Origin: Octopus vulgaris
Taxonomy: Eukaryota
Length of the DNA: 64,000 nt
NCBI GenBank assembly: GCA_951406725.2
Contig: OX597821.1
Coordinates: 69,068,001 to 69,132,000 of the forward strand
Direction: 5' to 3'
The position numbers and the translations under genes were made by a program. The notes beneath the pieces were generated by a model that made no database searches, was not told the DNA's origin, and saw only the letters and a list, made by a program, of their open reading frames with translations. Position 1 is the first letter of the stretch. Every line of letters begins with the position of its first letter. Below are positions 3,686-34,117 of this stretch, piece after piece.

Positions 3686-4869
3686 CTTGCTAATGTTTCT
3701 AGACATGGTTGCTTGACTTGTTAAATAGAGGAGCCAAATACCCTTAAATCACACTTCATTCCCTTAAAACCAGGACATATTGGATAGTGTGGTCCTTGAT
3801 AAGTAAAATGATGGGATGGTTATCATTAGAATGGTTTAAGATCATATTCCTGTTTTATCAGGGCTTACTTTGGGCTAAACATATTATGTTCTTAGCCATA
3901 TATACTTCTGTGTTTGTGTCTGTGTGCACGGTAAAACCTGATGAGTAGATTTTGTAGTTGTTATTCACAGGGCTAGCTAGTTGTGAATAGGCCCAGTTAG
4001 AACGGAAACATGATTAACTGTGAAAACTAGTCACGAAATAAAGAATACAACATATTGTACCTCTTGAAGAATTGAGTGTATTAATCAATATGTTTGAGCC
4101 TTGTTATTATGAACAAAGAACAACATTTATCTGTGTACTCTATGTATCTGTCTATCTGTCTGTTTATCTATTTGTCTGTCTGGTCTGTCTAGCTCTCTCT
4201 CTCTCTTTCTGACTATCTGTCTCTCTGTCTCTCAGTCTATCTGTCTGTGTATCTGTCTATCCATCTGTCAGTAAACTGTTTTTCAAATTCTGCTTCTTGC
4301 AACAATTTCCATTGGCATTGTCTCCCAGACAAGAGGCTCAACAACTACAACAATCAGAACTAACAACAACTATAGCAGTAAAGCTACACCTATTTCCTTC
4401 TACACTTGGAATGGTGAATGCTGCCATCTTTAATATACCCAACTACTGCTTACATTTTAAACACCATAATCCTCCTCATTGAAGGCACACTAAACACTGT
4501 TCCCCTTTAAGCCTGCTATTTCTCATAGGTTACCATATTAGATAGTGAAAATGCATGAATGTTGCACCATCACATTTGCCCCTTTTTATTAATTTGATTA
4601 CATCATTTTTAAATAAGATTACTATCCCCTGTATTCATTTGTTGTAGCATATAGTGTGGAAAGAGTGAGTGTTATGTTAAGCATCACTGTTGAGGCTTTC
4701 TGATTCATCTGTATATTAATCTTAGTATTCAAGATACCTTACCTGTATATGTTCCTCCCGTATTATTTAGCCCTCTGCCTGTCTCTATTATATATATATA
4801 TATCTTTACATACACATGTGTGTATTATATGTATCTGTAAATAATTAATATGGTTGTAAGAAAAATGAA

Positions 4870-11936: not shown

Positions 11937-13024
11937 CAGAGTGCTGTGAATAGACTGTCGTCTAAATTACGCAGAAATGAAAATAACTCTAACATCTCAT
12001 TTTAACAGATATCCCTCTCTCTCTCTTTCGGAGAGGCACTGAGCAGCTATACGCACACATACACACACGGCAGTAACTTCCACCTACCGAATTCAATCAC
12101 AAAGCTCCGGTCGGCTCGGGGCTATAGTGAAAGACACCTACCCAAAGTGCCATGCAGTGGGACTGAACCCGAAACTATGTAACTAGGAAGCAAGCTCCCT
12201 AACCACACAGCCATGCCCGCGCCTACGTTTGTCAAAATTACATATAAATATCTTGAAATACTAGAGTAAAGTTATTCAATAAAATTACCATTGGCTTCAA
12301 CTACAGCCTCCGGACGACTTTGGAATCTGCAACTCTTCTGGATGGTCTACTTGTTTAAGTTGGTGAATGCTGCCATAATCCTTGTTTTCAGTTCATCTTT
12401 GGTGTTACAAGGAGTTTTGTTGGTCTCTCGCTCAACTGCGCCCCACACATAATAATCAAGGGGGTTGCAGTCTAAGGAGTTAGGTGGCCAGATGTTAGGG
12501 GTGTTGTGGACACAGAAATTGTCTGACAGCTATGACTGGGTTCTCCTGCCTGTGTGGCATGGTGGAGAGTCCTGTTGCGAGACATAGGGTCTTCCAGCAG
12601 CCACCCTCTTGACCCAGGGCAGCACTACCTCCTCCAGGCACTTGATGTAGGCCGTCATGTTGATTGAGAGGCCATGTGGGAAGGGGAATAAAAGCAGAAT
12701 GTTAACATCACTAGTGATCACTCCAAACACCATGATGTTGACTGGATGTTTGATTTTGATCACTCGGTACATGTCCTCAGATTGCATTGTTCTCAGACTG
12801 ACACCCAAGCACTCTGAAATGTTCATATTGGAGCTTCCGGCGCAAATGCCAAGCATGTTGTTTCCAAATTTCTGGCAGAGTGAATTGACCATGGTGCTGT
12901 TTTTCTCTCAGATGGTGCTCAACTGACCCTACTATACTGTGTAGTCAACAAAATCAAAAGCAAACAATGTGCATGCATGAAATCAAAGAATATAAAATGG
13001 CAACAAGTTATCCATTACACCATG
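11937..13024 (-). mobile_element. Decayed, internally deleted Tc1/mariner-superfamily transposon of maT (DD37D) type
   Basis: Minus-strand translation QQDSPPCHTGRRTQS*LSDNFCVHNTPNIWPPNSLDCNPLDYYVWGAVERET gives 37 residues between the catalytic Ds. Imperfect TIRs at both ends; in-frame stop. Confidence 0.8.
12069..12223 (-). mobile_element. SINE head nested in the maT element
   Basis: Matches the 5' half of the dominant SINE (CAGTGGGACTGAACCC...CACAGCCATGCCCGCGCC on +). Confidence 0.75.
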
Positions 13025-15268: not shown

Positions 15269-15337
15269 CATATATATGTGCTCCAGCATGGCCGCAGTCA
15301 AATGACTGAAACAAGTAAAGAGTATACACACACACAC

Positions 15338-15368
<31 letters not shown>

Positions 15369-15439
15369 CATACATACATACACATATATATATATATATA
15401 TATATATACGCGAGAATGAAGCAACAAGAATGGATAGGT

Positions 15440-15530
15440 TTTTAGTACAATCGTTTCATACAAGGACAGGTTTTATTAAAAGTTGCAAAAATTACAGCAT
15501 ATAAACGTGTCCCGTACTCATCAGCTAAAA
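15440..15530 (-). ncRNA. Type I hammerhead ribozyme motif with 60-nt stem II
   Basis: UUUUAG CUGAUGA GUACGGGACA...UGUCCUUGUAU GAAAC GAUU GUA^CUAAAA. Complete core, 6-bp stem I, near-palindromic stem III ACGAUUGU. Confidence 0.8.
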
Positions 15531-15829
15531 TACATGTGAGTTCTCTAGACATCCTAGTGGTTGAGGCTATACTCATGAAGTAATGTAGATAATTAAGTAA
15601 CATAAACAGATTTCAAAAGTTCATTAAAGTTCTTTAAAGATGATGTACAGTCTTATCACAGAATTTTAAAAAAGTCTTAATAGCATCACAGAGAAGGTGA
15701 CCTAATCCATAGTGCACATATGAATTTCCAGAGATATGATGAGGGATTACATACTCACAGAAGACAAATTTATCCATTGTTAATTACAACGAGGTGGGTT
15801 TCAATTCCTGCTTATTAGCATTACAGAGA

Positions 15830-15956
15830 TTTTAGCTGATGAGTACGGGACACGTTTATATGCTGTAATTTTTGCTGATGAGTACGGGACACGTTTATAT
15901 GCTGTAATTTTTGCAACTTTTAATAAAACCTGTCCTTGTATGAAACGATTGTACTA
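15830..15956 (+). ncRNA. Rearranged copy of the same hammerhead
   Basis: Same core. 39-bp tandem duplication (15835/15874) gives two CUGAUGA boxes, and the 3' strand of stem I is shortened to CUA. Confidence 0.55.
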
Positions 15957-16119
15957 TCCATTCTTGTTGCTTCATTCTCGCTTATAATCACCCCACATTA
16001 CTGTATTGTTAAATCAGTATAGTTTTTTTTGGTGCATCTAAGTTAGGTACCATATTCAAGTAAATTCATTTAAATTAACTTGAATCTTTATTGCTTTTTA
16101 TATATATATATATATATAT

Positions 16120-16181
<62 letters not shown>

Positions 16182-17891
16182 GTACATATATATACATACA
16201 TAAGCATATATATATATATGAAGGGCTTCTTTCAGTTTGTGTTACGGAAAACATTCAAGGTTTTGGTTGGCCGGGGCCTATAGAAGACACTTGCACAAGG
16301 TGCTACGTAGAGGGACTGAACTCAAAAACTATGTGGTTGAGAAATAAACTTCATACCACACAGCCATGCTTGTGCTACCCTCAACGTATCTATGTTTTTA
16401 TGTATTTCACAAACTTCTCTCTATGTTAATATTACATGCTTTGGCTCTGCAGTGTTAGAAGACTTCCTTACTGTTGCTCTGGCCATAGTTGTTACTTGGT
16501 ATACCATATGCCTTTCTATCACAATCAGTACCAGAAAACCCTGAATGTAAATAAAATGATGGTAGCCTTTATTTTATCAGTGCTCATCATCCCATATATA
16601 CTTGGTCATCTATGTGATAGGTTGGTACCAAACTAAGGTTAATAATGTTTGTAATATGCACGACTGCAGTATATTACTGGTCCTCATTTTATTAACACTT
16701 ATATACATACATGAAAAATAAAACTATCCTTTTGTATCCAAGAACATGAAAGGCAATTTACTGTGAGTCTTTGTCTTAGAGAAAAAACATATTTTTTGTT
16801 AATAGGCTTTGTGTGTAAAAAACTTATGAAGCTGAGCTCCAAGTGACATCAATGAACTACCAGATACAGTTTTTGGTGTGATTTCACCTCTTCAGTTACA
16901 GATAGCATGTAGGTCATTTGCAGTTAAGCCAGAACTTTTATTGATCATCATCATTATCACATATAAAAATTTAAAAAATAATCCTAGCAGAGTATGAACT
17001 CTGATCAGTGAAACTCCAAGCTAGGCACCAAACTGTATCCAATATAGCGTCTACCATTTACTGGCTCCATGATATGTGAGACAAGTACACTGGAATCAGT
17101 TGATCCTAAGACTTGGTTTCAGTTTCCAGTTGTATGTCATTTCACTTCACATTTACTGGTAATGCTCTTGAACACCACACAACTTCATTTGTTCTCCTCT
17201 GTAAATATCAAGTATGACTGGCTTTGAGTGCCTGTTTATAAAACTAAGATCAGTTTTCCATAGTTATGCAGTGTGCTCTACTTTCTCAGATAACCCATGT
17301 CAGTTATGTTCTGTTTACAACTAGGTTATCCATCCAGCCATTGCCACTACGCACAAGACTTTAACCCCTTATCTCTGGAGCTATTTCTAATCTGACATCT
17401 TTGAAGAAATCTTTTTGATATTTCCCTCAGTTTTCCTCTTTCACTTTTATAAAAAAAATGTCCTTCAACACTTGGGAATCTTTATTTGTTTTGCTTAGAA
17501 TTTGTGGTCTCTCTTTTTTCATTTCTATAGACACCTCCTATAAGTTAATTCCACTCTAATTTTGCAGCAAAAGCCATATATCTAGTTGACCTGTTTCTAG
17601 TTTTCTTTGAAACAACAGTCTACCATAATTTAAATACAAAGTAACCTCTACATAGTCACTGATCCTACTAGAAATAGCAGCCAAATCTTTTAAATCACAT
17701 CCTGCTATCTAAAAGAAAAAGCGAGACATAATGGGTATTGTGATTATAGGTACAATGTCTGAATACATATCTTGTCTAGTAGGATTTTAAATACCAGCAA
17801 AATATCCCCTGAACAACAAATAAACTTCAAATTCTCCACTCTATCTATTTGAGTTATTTCAAAGTTGACTGACCTCTTTCACCTATAAAGC

Positions 17892-18947: not shown

Positions 18948-21900
18948 TGATTGATTGATTGATTCTAGTTTCAGCTTATGAGCTGTGGCCATGCTGGGGC
19001 ACCGCCATTTGGTGTTGCTACTTGGTTTCACTTCATGGAGGCTTTCTAGCAACTGCTATTTGGTGCATGAGAGAGTTCGATGCAGCTGCCCTCATCTGCC
19101 CCTCCTGCCGTGAAGTTGGTTCATCTGGGACACCTGACAGGAAGAGATCCAGCTTCATTTTAAAGACATCTGTATCCACCCCATGCAGGTCTCTCAGGTT
19201 CTTCGGGAGGATATTGAAGAGCTGTGGGCCTCGGAAGCCCAGGCTATCACAGTATCTTGTCCTACATCTTGATGGCAGGTTTGGAGTCCTAGGCACCACG
19301 CAGTGGCGCCCAGTTCTGGCATTTGCGTAACTCTCGATGCCAAAGTTCAGGACACTTCCCTCCAGGATCTTCCAGATGTATATTATGGCATATCTTTCCC
19401 GCCTACGCTCCAGGGAATATAATTTTAATCTCTTGAGTCTTTCCCAGTAGCTTACATTCTGCATAGAGGCTATCTTCTTTGTGTAGCTTCGTTGGATCGC
19501 CTCAAGTTCTGTGATAAACTTGACACTGGATGGTGACCATAGCTGAGAGCAATAGTCAAAGTGGCTTAGGACAAGTGTCTTCCAGAGGACCATCATGGTT
19601 TCTTGTTCTCTTGTTCTAAAGGTTCTAAGAATCCATCCAGCCAGCCGTCTACATTTCATTGTCAGTTTAGCAACATGTACATGAAAGGTCGCGTCATCAC
19701 TCATGTGAATACCCAGGTCACGCACTGATTGTGCCTCTGGGATTGCAATCCCTCCGGGTCCAGTGTATTCATTGGGTATTGCATTCAGTTTTGCATGCTG
19801 ATAGTATAAAGCTTGAAACTTTCCAGCATTGAACTGCATGCTATTCTTTTCAGCCCACTTGTATATTTCGTCCAGCTCACATTGCAGGTGTTTAGTGTCC
19901 TCAGGGTTCTGTATTGCCTGTGAAACTTTTGTATCATCTGCATAACTTGTGATCGTGGCTCTCTGCGTGGCTGAGGGCATGTCTGAGAGGGCCATTATGA
20001 ACAGTAGTGGTCCCAGAACAGTGCCCTGCGGAACACCGCTCACTATTTGTGTGTTAATGGAGGTGGCCCCATTGGCTACTACCACCTGACTTCTATCCTT
20101 CAGAAAGTCATGAAGCCATTCTCCCAGTTTTCCAACAATGTTGAGATCACGCAGTTTGTGACATATCATTCCATGATCGACTTTATCAAAGGCCTTTGCA
20201 AAGTCGAGATATATCACTTCCACATTTGAGTGGTTGAGCAGCCGTTTCAGCACCCAGTCATAGTGTTGTAGGAGCTGAGTTAAACAGCTTCTCCCTGGTC
20301 GGAAACCATGTTGGGTGTCGGGCAGCAAGTCATTCTCTTCAAGGAAGGTGATCAGCTTCCTTCTGACTATTCGTTCCATGACCTTGCTGATGTGTGAGGT
20401 CAGAGAGATAGGTCTATAGTTCTTGGCTTCCGCTCTGCTACCTCCTTTATGAATGGGGCATATTTTACCTTCCTTCAGTTTTCCTGGAAGTTTGCCAGCT
20501 GCAAGGAAGCTCTGAAAGAGGAACTGCAGTGGTCTTGCTAGGACTCTCTTACATGCTTTTAGGAGGATTGCCGGGAATCCATCGGGGCCAGTAGCTGAGT
20601 CTGTTTTCATTTCATCTATAGCCTTGGTTACATCGTCTTCATTTATATCGATGTAATCTATCGTCGCCGCCTCTGATTTTATATCTGCAGTGGTAAAAAA
20701 GTCAGTTGGATTGGTGATTTGGAGATGCCCAAGGGGTGGAGTGAAAACACTCTTGAATTGCTCATTCAGTATTTCACTTACCCTCATTGGTTTTTCTGTA
20801 AGTGTGCCATCCTTTTCGAGGAGTGGCCCTATTCTACAGTGCACTGTAGCTGTTTCTTTGGCATACCTGTAGAAAGCTCTGGGGTTAGATTTTATGTTTT
20901 CTACAGCCCAGGCTTCTTTGTCTGCTCTTTCTTTTTCATGGGAGAGTTGCAGACATTTTTCGATTTCCAACAGTTTTATTTTTAGGCGGGACTTTTCACT
21001 GCTTTCAATCTGTTTGTTTAGGCGATTTGAAAATTTCGTACGCCGTCTCATTAAAATTTTCCTCTCTCTGGGGATTTTGTTCTTGTGTACAGTGGCCTTT
21101 CTCTCTGGGACACATTTGTAGCATATGGCTTGCATTACAGACATGAATTGTTGAAGTTTCACGTCGATGTCTGGCGAGGAGAGACATTCAGGCCAGTTTT
21201 GTTTGAGGATCTCTTTCTCAATTTGTTTCCAGTTTGCCTTATGGTAGTTCAAGCTGGAAAGATTTTGAGGGTTTCTTGTAGGCTGCATGTCCGTGCTCTC
21301 TTTTGGCCCGTACATGGTCAGCTCTACCATGTTGTGATCCGAGAGTAGTGTCGGTGTCACTTTCACATTATGGATGAGATCCATGTCATTTGTGAAGCAG
21401 AGATCCAGTGTGTTACCTGCCCTGGTTGGTTGGAGTATTACCTGCTCCATGTACAGGGTGTTGATGAGGTTCAGGAGGGACCTCGCCTGTCCTCGTTCAC
21501 ATCTTGTCATTCCTGGGAGAGAAAGGCCCTCGGGCCATCTGACATTGGGCAGATTGAAGTCTCCCATAAGAAGCACACCTATGTGTTGTTCTAATGTGGT
21601 TAGAATTTCTTCTATTTTTATAAGGCAGTCTTCGAACTTGCCCACATGGCTTGGGGCATCTGGAGGGCGATATGTAGCACACACAACTACATCAAGTTGC
21701 CTAATATGTACAATTAGTGTGTCACACACCGAGTTTGAGTATGACAAGAGGACCTGGGGTGTGAGGTCCTCACGGATGTACATAGCAACACCTCCATGAC
21801 TCCTTTCTTTCCTGTCGGTCCGTAGTACAGCATACTGTGGTATGTGTAACTCCGCATCTGCTATGTCCGGTTTCAGGTGCGTTTCTGTAAGTGCTATGCA

Positions 21901-22000
21901 TAAGGCTTGATTGCATGCAACAAAGTCTCTCAGGAACGGGATCTTTGTCCTGTTACTGAGTGTTTGCAGTCCTCTGATGTTCAGTAGGAGTATAGCCCTG
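18948..22000 (-). mobile_element. CR1-group (CR1/L2/Crack-like) LINE, 5'-truncated, ORF1 absent
   Basis: APE+RT ORF, ~70-bp 3' UTR with a stem-loop, (AATC)n tail at 18948-18964. Possible short TTATGA target duplication. Confidence 0.9.
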
Positions 22001-22071
22001 AGTATTATGACATCACTTGGTGTAATGTTATATTGCTTCCACAACTGTTCCAGTTGTTGAAATGTGGGCAT
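19033..22071 (-). CDS. LINE ORF2: apurinic-like endonuclease + reverse transcriptase (1012 aa from first in-frame ATG)
   Basis: Endonuclease motifs LLNIRGL, ALTETHL, YRPP, GDFNLP, TLDL, SDHN. RT motifs NYRPISLTS, QHGFRPGRSC, YLDFAKAFDKV, GVPQGTVLGPLLF, YADD. No stops or frameshifts. Confidence 0.92.
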   Translation of the reverse strand: MPTFQQLEQLWKQYNITPSDVIILRAILLLNIRGLQTLSNRTKIPFLRDFVACNQALCIALTETHLKPDIADAELHIPQYAVLRTDRKERSHGGVAMYIREDLTPQVLLSYSNSVCDTLIVHIRQLDVVVCATYRPPDAPSHVGKFEDCLIKIEEILTTLEQHIGVLLMGDFNLPNVRWPEGLSLPGMTRCERGQARSLLNLINTLYMEQVILQPTRAGNTLDLCFTNDMDLIHNVKVTPTLLSDHNMVELTMYGPKESTDMQPTRNPQNLSSLNYHKANWKQIEKEILKQNWPECLSSPDIDVKLQQFMSVMQAICYKCVPERKATVHKNKIPRERKILMRRRTKFSNRLNKQIESSEKSRLKIKLLEIEKCLQLSHEKERADKEAWAVENIKSNPRAFYRYAKETATVHCRIGPLLEKDGTLTEKPMRVSEILNEQFKSVFTPPLGHLQITNPTDFFTTADIKSEAATIDYIDINEDDVTKAIDEMKTDSATGPDGFPAILLKACKRVLARPLQFLFQSFLAAGKLPGKLKEGKICPIHKGGSRAEAKNYRPISLTSHISKVMERIVRRKLITFLEENDLLPDTQHGFRPGRSCLTQLLQHYDWVLKRLLNHSNVEVIYLDFAKAFDKVDHGMICHKLRDLNIVGKLGEWLHDFLKDRSQVVVANGATSINTQIVSGVPQGTVLGPLLFIMALSDMPSATQRATITSYADDTKVSQAIQNPEDTKHLQCELDEIYKWAEKNSMQFNAGKFQALYYQHAKLNAIPNEYTGPGGIAIPEAQSVRDLGIHMSDDATFHVHVAKLTMKCRRLAGWILRTFRTREQETMMVLWKTLVLSHFDYCSQLWSPSSVKFITELEAIQRSYTKKIASMQNVSYWERLKRLKLYSLERRRERYAIIYIWKILEGSVLNFGIESYANARTGRHCVVPRTPNLPSRCRTRYCDSLGFRGPQLFNILPKNLRDLHGVDTDVFKMKLDLFLSGVPDEPTSRQEGQMRAAASNSLMHQIAVARKPP

Positions 22072-23357
22072 CCGTTGTGTGTGTTGTGTTATATCACTTC
22101 CCGCTGTCAATTAGAATCATGTTATTGTAGACCTGCCAATTATTCCAATTTCAATCTAATGACTTAGTTAAGATAAATGTAATTTAGCTAAGTATTGTTT
22201 TGAATTAGTGGTTGATGTCTAAGTTAACACTCACCTACATTATATTCATTCACTTATCTAGTGCTTACATTTGACTATCTTGCCAGATGCTGTTTTTTTT
22301 ATTTATTATTATTTGATTTTTTTTTTTTACTTTTTGAATTTTTATGGTTTCATCAAAGGAGAGGAGGCAGCATCATTGTGACCTTTGCAGGACCTCCAAG
22401 ATTGGTGCAAGGAGGGGAAGGGAAGGAGAAATCACCACTTGTGGGTTTGATGCTAACCACTAGTATAGCCCTGCTGGAAGTCTGTGGTTGCAGGTGGGCC
22501 GGCAAATAAATAGGGCAGAAAATACAGCAATATATTTAAACCATCACACACACACACACACGTGTGCGTGCGCACATGTGTGTGTAGGCAATACAATGGA
22601 CTTGGGCCATGCCAAACTCTTGTTATATCTGAAAGCAAGCTTCTTCCTTGTGTAAAATTCAATAACACAAACAGTGACTCTTTGCAAGGGAGGGTGTGTT
22701 ATAGAACACAACCCATCAGCTAGAAATAACTGTCAAATATCCTTGTTTTCTATTTTAAATAGTTTCTCTTACTCTAGGTACCGATTTAGGGTCTATGGCC
22801 TATGGGGATATTGAATAGTAATGTTCCAGGTTTTACTAGATGGTTCCTTAGATTCTATATCATCATCATCAACCCTTGGCCATTACTGTGTCATGTCTTA
22901 TGACTCATAGGACCAGATACTTGATTTCCATGGCATATTAGTGACTGAGATCACAAATCTTTTTCCTGAATGGGATGCCAATCTGTCATAGTGTATCTAT
23001 TACATAGAGCAATGTGAAATGAAGTGTTTTGCGGAAGAACACAATTTACTACGCGCTTGAGGTATTGAAATTACAATCCTACAATCTCGAGTTCAACACC
23101 CTAGTTACTAGGCTATTCTCCTTAGATTAGAAGTACTTTATTATTTTTTGCTTTTGTTTTCACAGTCTTACTGAATATCATTTATGTAATATCAGCACTT
23201 TGTTAGTTGGTTAATTTTGTTTCTACTTGTAATTTCTGCTTGTATAATGCAAATTTATTTTCTCAGCTTTCAGTTTATGGTGTTTCATGATATAGTCAAT
23301 TTTTTTTTTTTTTTCATGTTTAAAAGAATTAAGAAACATTAAGAAACATAAAAATAA

Positions 23358-32640: not shown

Positions 32641-32675
<35 letters not shown>

Positions 32676-32738
32676 CAACCGCAAAATAACATTAATTCCG
32701 CAAACCAGGAGAAAATTAAAAAAACATTTACCCTGTAA

Positions 32739-32843
32739 TTTCTTATACGATGCACCGTTTCATCTATTGTTTAATGGTAAACTAACCTGATTAAATTAAA
32801 TCAAGCCAATCATCCATAGGCCGATAGATTCGTCAGTAAGAAA
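32739..32843 (-). ncRNA. Type I hammerhead ribozyme motif with 68-nt stem II
   Basis: UUUCUUA CUGACGA AUCUAU...AUAGAU GAAAC GGUGCAUC GUA^UAAGAAA. 7-bp stem I, canonical CUGANGA/GAAA/GUA core, near-palindromic stem III. Confidence 0.88.
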
Positions 32844-33222
32844 CAGCCAGATCCGAGCAGATATTATCACGAGGCACCTCTATCCCTGCCTCGGCAATAT
32901 CTGACCTAAAATTTTCAAATCATCGCACTCGCGCCAAATTTATCGGCAGCAAATATAAGCCGCCGATTCCATTACGGAATTAACCAGAAAATTCATAATT
33001 AATCAATATAGGGTGGCAAAAAATTTCGTAGAATTTATTTGCCACCAGCGGCCTAGTGGGAAAAAATTAAATAGTCATAGACCATTTATAAGTTCAACAT
33101 CACAATCAAGGAATGGCCATAATAGGCCATTCACCCACTAGAAATAACAGCCAAAGCTTCAACCGCAAAATAACATTAATTCCGCAAACCAGGAGAGAAT
33201 TAAAAAAACATTTACCCTGTAA

Positions 33223-33327
33223 TTTCTTATACGATGCACTGTTTCATCTATTGTTTAATGGTAAACTAACCTGATTAAATTAAATCAAGCCAATCATCCA
33301 TAGGCCGATAGATTCGTCAGTAAGAAA
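33223..33327 (-). ncRNA. Second tandem hammerhead ribozyme motif
   Basis: Identical to 32739-32843 except one G>A in stem III (GAAACAGUGCAUCGUA). Confidence 0.8.
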
Positions 33328-34117
33328 CAGCCAGATCCGAGCAGATATTATCACGAGGCACCTCTATCCCTGCCTCGGCAATATCTGACCTAAAATTTTC
33401 AAATTTTTTAAAAAAATTTTCTCCTGGTCTATGGTCTATGACTATTTAATTTTTTCCCACTAGGCCGCTGGTGGCAAATAAATTCTACGAAATTTTTTGC
33501 CACCCTATATTGATTAATTATATATATATATATATATGTGTGTGTGTATATGTTTGTGTGTCTGTGTTTGTCCCCGTAACTTAGCGGTTCAGCAAAAGAG
33601 ACCGATACTATAAGTACTAGGCTTCCAAAGAATAAGTCCTGAGGGTCGATTTGCTCAACTAAAAGTGGTGCTCCAGTATGGCTGCAGTCAAATGACTGAA
33701 ACAAGTAAAAGAGTAAAAAGAGTAAAGAGAGCTTATATATGTGTGTATGTCTTTCTGTTTGTCCCCCACTAATGCTTGATGTCTGGCATTGGTTTATTTA
33801 CATCCCTGTAACTTAGCATTTCAGCAAAAAGGATCGATGGAATAAGTAACAGGCTTTATAAATATTGGGGTCAAGGTGGTGCCCTCAGCATGGCTGCAGT
33901 CAAATGACTGAAACAAGTAAAAGATAGAAGATATTCAAAGCACCAGTCTAAAGTCAAAAATGAGCAACAGGCCCTCCTATTGAGCTGGCCTCTGATGCTA
34001 CAGAATTTCAACTGTGTATGCCCGACTGGTGTTTAGATGTGATGTATGTTTGATGTCCATGGTAAAAGTGGACTGAAGTGTGTGTGTGTGCATGCTTAAG
34101 ATCATTTCAGTGATTAA

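Follow-up and report, generated by a model that had tools for sequence, protein, structure and literature searches.

The locus considered here raises the question of why two hammerhead motifs lying in opposite orientation within one insertion should differ, one having a complete layout and the other being rearranged, and whether this asymmetry was shaped by selection on a host transcript or by the way in which the insertion was made. The locus lies in a window of 64,000 nucleotides of Octopus vulgaris DNA (contig OX597821.1), which is the whole stretch analysed and to which all positions refer. An earlier note had proposed that, if the host gene is on the plus strand, the damaged ribozyme is the sense-strand one, as would be expected if cutting of the host pre-mRNA is harmful. 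The reading preferred here is that the locus probably represents a single insertion of a Penelope-like element (PLE), in which two 5′-truncated copies were joined head to head in (TA)n and the indels of one copy would be unselected slips at microhomologies.

A repeat search of the window places the inverted arms at 15410-15531 on the minus strand and 15829-15981 on the plus strand, and the features of the locus are collected in Table 1. When a 39-bp duplication and an 8-bp deletion of the right arm are set aside, alignment and exact comparison show no difference between the arms at any of 114 sites. The earlier note's statement that the arms are otherwise identical therefore stands, and its conclusion that the insertion is recent is only loosely bounded, as 0 differences in 114 sites allow up to 2.6% divergence (95% bound). 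At the inversion junction, 15829, a single nucleotide is common to the forward and inverted copies. Runs of (TA)n, which make up 1,048 of the 64,000 bases of the window, adjoin all four ends of its two hammerhead insertions.

Table 1. Features of the inverted hammerhead locus, in window coordinates.
Feature	Position	Strand	Remarks
(TA)n run	15385..15408	.	Left side of the target microsatellite; no readable target-site duplication
Inverted 5′-truncated repeat copy, long (420 bp)	15410..15829	-	3′ end at 15410, without tail
Left arm of inverted repeat, 122 nt	15410..15531	-	
Type I hammerhead, complete layout	15440..15530	-	Descriptor scan and fold; cleavage predicted only
Non-coding body (spacer) upstream of the left hammerhead	15532..15828	-	Member of the repeat family
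Forward copy, short (270 bp), 5′-truncated	15829..16098	+	Truncated at the outer end of stem I, 7 nt before the hammerhead core
39-bp tandem duplication	15829..15906 (15829-15867, 15868-15906)	+	Two CUGAUGA boxes, at 15836 and 15875
CTA left by 8-bp microhomology deletion	15954..15956	+	Directly after the predicted cut site, 15953
One-sided tail, 117 nt	15982..16098	+	Between two 3′ ends of the repeat family; covered in 4 of 4 runs
(TA)n run	16099..16122	.	Right side of the target microsatellite

The left arm carries CUGANGA and GAAA boxes, an NUH triplet and three helices on the minus strand. Stem I has 6 bp and is followed by CUGAUGA at 15524-15518, a long stem II that spans 60 nt together with its loop and is closed by G-U, and GAAA at 15457-15454; stem III has 2 bp and a self-complementary 4-nt loop, GAUU. 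The cleavage triplet is GUA, with the predicted cut between 15446 and 15445. A descriptor scan finds three hammerhead motifs in the window, all on the minus strand and belonging to two insertions, with an expectation of 0.02 per shuffled window (100 shuffles). Rfam returns no match at gathering thresholds in the window and, within 15300-16200, 37 weak matches of which none is a hammerhead; plain folds of the arms do not exceed shuffles in stability (z 0.03 to 0.48). As Rfam is silent and the plain folds are no stabler than shuffles, the hammerhead call rests on the descriptor. At 10.1-11.1 the left hammerhead has a G-U wobble, not the conserved G-C, and no variant is listed at 15458; the G10.1-C11.1 pair is reported as highly conserved in hammerheads, though not absolutely so (PMC4209133). 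The earlier description of the left arm as an intact minus-strand hammerhead thus holds by layout only, given this wobble, the short stem III and the missing Rfam match. A further CUGAUGA followed by strong hairpins occurs on the plus strand at 3938 but does not satisfy the hammerhead descriptor.

Contigs from four public DNA runs show six variant sites in the arm, none of them with a variant of at least 5% in the boxes or stem I. One family variant, at 15452, accounts for 17-49% of depth in the four runs and makes the stem III segment a perfect palindrome. The left-arm stem III is too short for a monomer. As judged from sequence, a short self-complementary stem III marks a ribozyme of the dimer type, and the palindromic variant is what would be expected of one.

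In the right arm, both rearrangements named in the earlier note, the duplication across CUGAUGA and the CTA-flanked deletion in stem I, are borne out in the assembly sequence. The duplicated 39 nt start at the inversion junction and lie between two 8-mers that are alike at 7 of 8 positions, and the second lesion removes 8 nt between two CTA triplets, reducing stem I from 6 to 3 pairs. After this deletion, stem I has 3 pairs when formed with the first core and 1 with the second. The duplication only enlarges loop II, and the first core stays usable; because stem II still closes around the duplication from the first core, the duplication alone leaves the motif unbroken. The predicted cost of folding into the hammerhead is 9.7-10.2 kcal/mol for the right arm and 5.3 kcal/mol for the left. 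The lesions thus amount to two microhomology indels with no substitution among the compared sites.

Both indels could in principle be assembly or read errors in a hairpin-forming stretch, the true allele having two identical arms, and inverted repeats with strong hairpins are indeed described as hard to assemble in the case of PLE insertions (PMC8557442). The 32 contig pieces listed (of 3,048) leave 15830-15955 uncovered, so that they confirm neither indel and both are known from this assembly, and the best run contains only 0.76 of the sampled words. The absent support nevertheless says little, as contigs of a high-copy repeat lose rare variants, and an error would have to account for clean microhomology ends at both indels in an alignment that is otherwise free of errors. 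An artefact is accordingly regarded as quite improbable.

The wider family was followed in the contigs of these four runs (4 of the 24 listed, from three organisms), mapped on 15400-16105. All 30 bins of this interval are covered in each of the four runs, with 365-1,101 contigs per run, and one contig identical to the window has a depth of 11,722, compared to 8-10 for the rarest contigs listed in that run. Because depth does not give copy number, the family is called only very abundant. The whole of 15410-16098 is high-copy repeat and belongs to a dispersed multi-copy family. The boundary 15531/15532 is crossed by 11 of the 32 listed pieces (of 3,048), none having 31 letters on both sides and the best having 36 and 29, whereas 15829/15830 is crossed by none of the 32; one piece ends at 15829, and a loose end present in three contigs continues differently. 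Since pieces cross the former boundary and none the latter, the spacer is assigned to the left copy as its upstream body and the inversion junction is placed at 15829. The continuation of the family past 15829 in the loose end resembles 15695-15716. The spacer may itself hold a degenerate internal repeat with a period of about 135, 15676-15716 being compared with 15811-15829 (17 of 19 bases alike); in the overall search, the scores of internal repeats (32-40) were not above those of shuffles (mean 31, maximum 50). Outside these runs, a 19-nt pattern was found at no metagenome locus, and an 18-nt pattern was found at 83 metagenome and 4 viral loci, of which 0 of 87 had the upstream stem I and core or an above-chance match.

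In ten joints from other copies, an inverted piece is connected with a forward one, each joint being seen as one contig with 23-35 letters on its short side. Five of them have starting points in the spacer, all different, two reach their forward piece at 15982 and one at 15832, next to the junction of the locus itself; two of the ten (15489-15906 and 15512-15892) lie near mirror positions inside the stem II hairpin and might be products of mapping. Together with the present locus, the joints represent variably 5′-truncated copies with an inverted copy at the 5′ end. These data also bear on the idea that the locus is a MITE or foldback DNA transposon with a hammerhead-like motif that lies in its terminal inverted repeats by chance. 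Such an element would account for near-perfect inverted arms around a non-coding middle, but beyond the right arm the repeat continues for 117 nt with no counterpart on the left, the middle is part of just one of the two copies and arm lengths differ in other copies. In place of the fixed ends and two-sided terminal inverted repeats of such transposons, the family has variable junctions, which largely refute this origin and make it hardly credible.

The hammerhead near the 3′ end, the head-to-head 5′-truncated copies, the one-sided tail, the (TA)n target, the high copy number and the variable junctions all support the earlier assignment to a Penelope-type inverted pLTR insertion, and a PLE insertion is very likely on structural grounds, perhaps one of a non-autonomous derivative. 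None of 12 translated frames of the spacer and locus scores above a Pfam curated cut-off, so that no reverse transcriptase (RT) or GIY-YIG sequence links the family to PLEs; a frame with a telomerase-like RT and a GIY-YIG endonuclease would be expected in the full element, of which the locus contains no more than the final 420 nt. Endonuclease-bearing (EN+) PLEs are described as inserting at microsatellites with an inverted 5′-truncated copy and a tail confined to one end (PMC8557442; PMC3846280). The EN+ groups (Penelope/Poseidon, Neptune, Nematis, Naiad) likewise share the head-to-head truncated copies, the one-sided tail and a hammerhead near the 3′ end, along with AT-rich or (TA)n targets and microhomology deletions (PMC8557442; PMC3846280; PMC11167929), the last being reported as common in Penelope copies of the rotifer Adineta vaga (PMC3846280). 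Opposite-strand hammerhead pairs 100-700 bp apart are likewise reported in Schistosoma mansoni (PMC4209133). The architecture, the opposite-strand pairs and the microhomology damage are thus already described for PLEs. In O. vulgaris, 30 recently active Penelope families have been catalogued, and hammerheads are unmentioned in the main text of that work (PMC13282606).

Two features set the locus apart from the EN+ PLEs. The tail has 117 nt here and 164 nt in the second family of the window, in contrast to published tails of 30-40 bp (PMC8557442; PMC11167929) or 31 bp (PMC3846280), and both the 420 nt upstream and the tail are without coding sequence. A literature search on PLE tails yielded no further primary paper. 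Compared to the metazoan PLE hammerheads described by Cervera and de la Pena in 2014 (PMC4209133), the left-arm motif has the same type I topology, conserved boxes, long helix II and short self-complementary helix III suited to a dimer, and differs in the G-U at 10.1-11.1, the lack of an extra base between positions 9 and 10.1, and the length of helix II plus loop (60 nt). Animal non-LTR retrozymes are likewise non-coding and high-copy with a type I hammerhead, and have been proposed to move with PLE enzymes (PMC7229834; bioRxiv 10.64898/2026.07.22.740005). As described in these sources, retrozymes are head-to-tail tandem monomers of about 220-350 bp, whereas this locus is an inverted pair. 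The tandem organization of a non-LTR retrozyme is lacking at this locus, which holds only the inverted pair and the 39-bp duplication.

In the proposed sequence of events, modelled on the published PLE mechanism, a GIY-YIG endonuclease would nick both strands of AT-rich DNA, and reverse transcription would start on the element RNA from two sites separated by 117 nt; in vitro, the tail has been described as the stretch between two such start sites (PMC11167929). The first cDNA would begin at the inner site and run for 420 nt to give the left inverted copy. The second would begin at the tail end and stop at the outer edge of hammerhead stem I, giving the right copy, and the 5′-truncated ends of both cDNAs would then be joined. 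TTATA opens the tail (15982-15986) directly after the inner 3′ end, and the left flank at 15405-15410 reads TATA after one extra base; this likeness suggests possible base pairing between target and RNA at the inner start site. The 39-bp duplication would be a slip between the two similar 8-mers and the 8-bp deletion a slip between the two CTA triplets, both most likely, as judged from one allele, during synthesis or sealing of the short copy, or otherwise soon afterwards in the hairpin-prone inverted repeat. The second insertion of the window likewise has an odd short piece, which is palindromic, at its inversion junction (33405-33430).

Alternatively, the right arm may derive from another template than the left, a donor or subfamily in which the deletion or the duplication was already present. 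The family does have several subfamilies, as judged from contig variants and loose ends, and the predicted dimeric state of the PLE protein would make two RNAs possible (PMC11167929). Yet both arms have the same letters at the six polymorphic arm sites, and the contigs that bear the tail show the undeleted form (two contigs of run X1, with a loose end at 15954). The 8-nt deletion is also absent among variants of at least 5% in the four runs, a result to be read with the caveat that deleted copies would map to the right arm unnoticed. A pre-damaged template is therefore considered very improbable, and slips in the copying of one template are preferred.

These slips must also be weighed against selection, which supposes that a plus-strand gene carries the insertion in one of its introns, that the plus hammerhead cut the pre-mRNA and that alleles with a damaged stem I were favored. 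In ordinary mutation, large indels are much rarer than point changes, and a ribozyme would be inactivated far more often by a point change in its core than by a pair of indels of 8 and 39 bp; a second lesion, moreover, would add nothing to the benefit. Copying slips fit better than selection because the damage consists of two microhomology indels without a substitution, one of them at the junction. The lower readiness of the right arm to form a hammerhead is as selection would have it, as is the reported depletion of retrozymes in Xenopus introns (bioRxiv 10.64898/2026.07.22.740005). A search of the literature found no paper on strand bias of intronic PLE hammerheads, and the text of the retrozyme preprint contains neither "antisense" nor "orientation", although its supplements may hold strand data.

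On the plus strand, T is in excess of A by +0.05 to +0.12 in each of the eight 8-kb blocks of the window (unmasked sequence), a skew that hints at a plus host strand and thereby favors the selection scenario. All three intact hammerheads and an intact LINE frame lie on the minus strand, which also fits, but as the hammerheads belong to two insertions, the placing of both on minus has a 1-in-4 chance. No host exon was found in the window: a splice-site scan gave 14 weak candidates, three of them inside the LINE, and a Pfam search of 127 of 314 filtered frames, selected by a composition score with seven longer ones added, placed only the LINE above a curated cut-off. The window may therefore be part of a single long intron or be intergenic. 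SINE-like copies are present in both orientations, 11 in one and 4 in the other, and no host strand is derivable from them; the content of SINEs and microsatellites has an octopus-like look.

The folding of read-through RNA bears on whether either ribozyme could have harmed a host transcript. In such an RNA from either strand, the complementary arm is transcribed first. An equilibrium prediction, which leaves out proteins and kinetics, gives a free fold with 113-116 long-range pairs, and forcing the hammerhead would cost 111 kcal/mol on the minus strand and 123 or 68 kcal/mol on the plus strand. All seven core bases are predicted to be paired at long range once the motif is complete, so that arm pairing would mask the core on both strands. 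Neither ribozyme is thus predicted to cut the read-through transcript, as the arms would form a duplex of about 114 bp and no same-strand hammerhead lies nearby for a dimer. Cleavage by lone PLE hammerheads is reported as absent or low in vitro (PMC4209133; PMC11167929): a single minimal PLE hammerhead gave no detectable cleavage (PMC4209133) and the Anolis PLE ribozyme needed its protein (PMC11167929), with monomers from axolotl cutting 6-22% in an hour and dimers much more (PMC7229834). The predicted arm pairing and the poor cutting by lone PLE hammerheads together suggest that even an undamaged arm was unlikely to threaten a host transcript, and the selective pressure invoked in the earlier note was probably weak. 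Considering the missing host exon, the predicted masking of the arms and a lesion pattern of two microhomology indels at one locus, the claim that the sense ribozyme was damaged because it harmed the host is not upheld, and selection is judged unlikely.

The second hammerhead insertion, at 32675-33521, offers a comparison within the window. It belongs to a different family without similarity to the first, lies inside (TA)n and comprises two direct 246-nt copies with two differences between them; both copies carry a minus-strand hammerhead that looks intact, with an 8-bp stem I and with CUGACGA at 33320 and 32836. Its 164-nt tail lies between its two 3′ ends and is accompanied by a 91-nt perfect inverted tail piece. 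As a direct tandem, this insertion could form an active dimer. Elsewhere in the window, the LINE frame at 19033-22110 (minus) is uninterrupted over 1,025 aa with endonuclease and RT domains and probably marks a young copy; an exact look-up of its protein gave no match. Minus-strand frames at 12350-12907, without a Pfam match, resemble what we take to be decayed pieces of a Tc1/mariner transposase.

On its own, the single locus matters little, being an ordinary head-to-head stub of a very common hammerhead-bearing repeat. The two insertions together prompt a broader and tentative proposal, which is rather doubtful as a whole: two unrelated PLE-type families would prime reverse transcription at sites 117 and 164 nt apart, 3-5 times the published tail, and head-to-head stubs would silence their own ribozyme by antisense pairing and thus escape a selection that purges sense direct tandems from introns. 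If such self-silencing of stubs were true, direct-tandem copies would be expected to show an antisense bias that inverted stubs lack, and the many perfect RNA hairpins left in introns would be possible substrates for editing. Should PLE hammerheads be active in living cells, direct tandems in introns, being able to form the active dimer, would be expected to be scarce on the sense strand; inverted stubs would not, and could serve as a control. Tails of this length would extend the range of priming geometries known for PLEs, and a sense-strand scarcity of direct tandems would bear on the question of whether PLE ribozymes are active in vivo.
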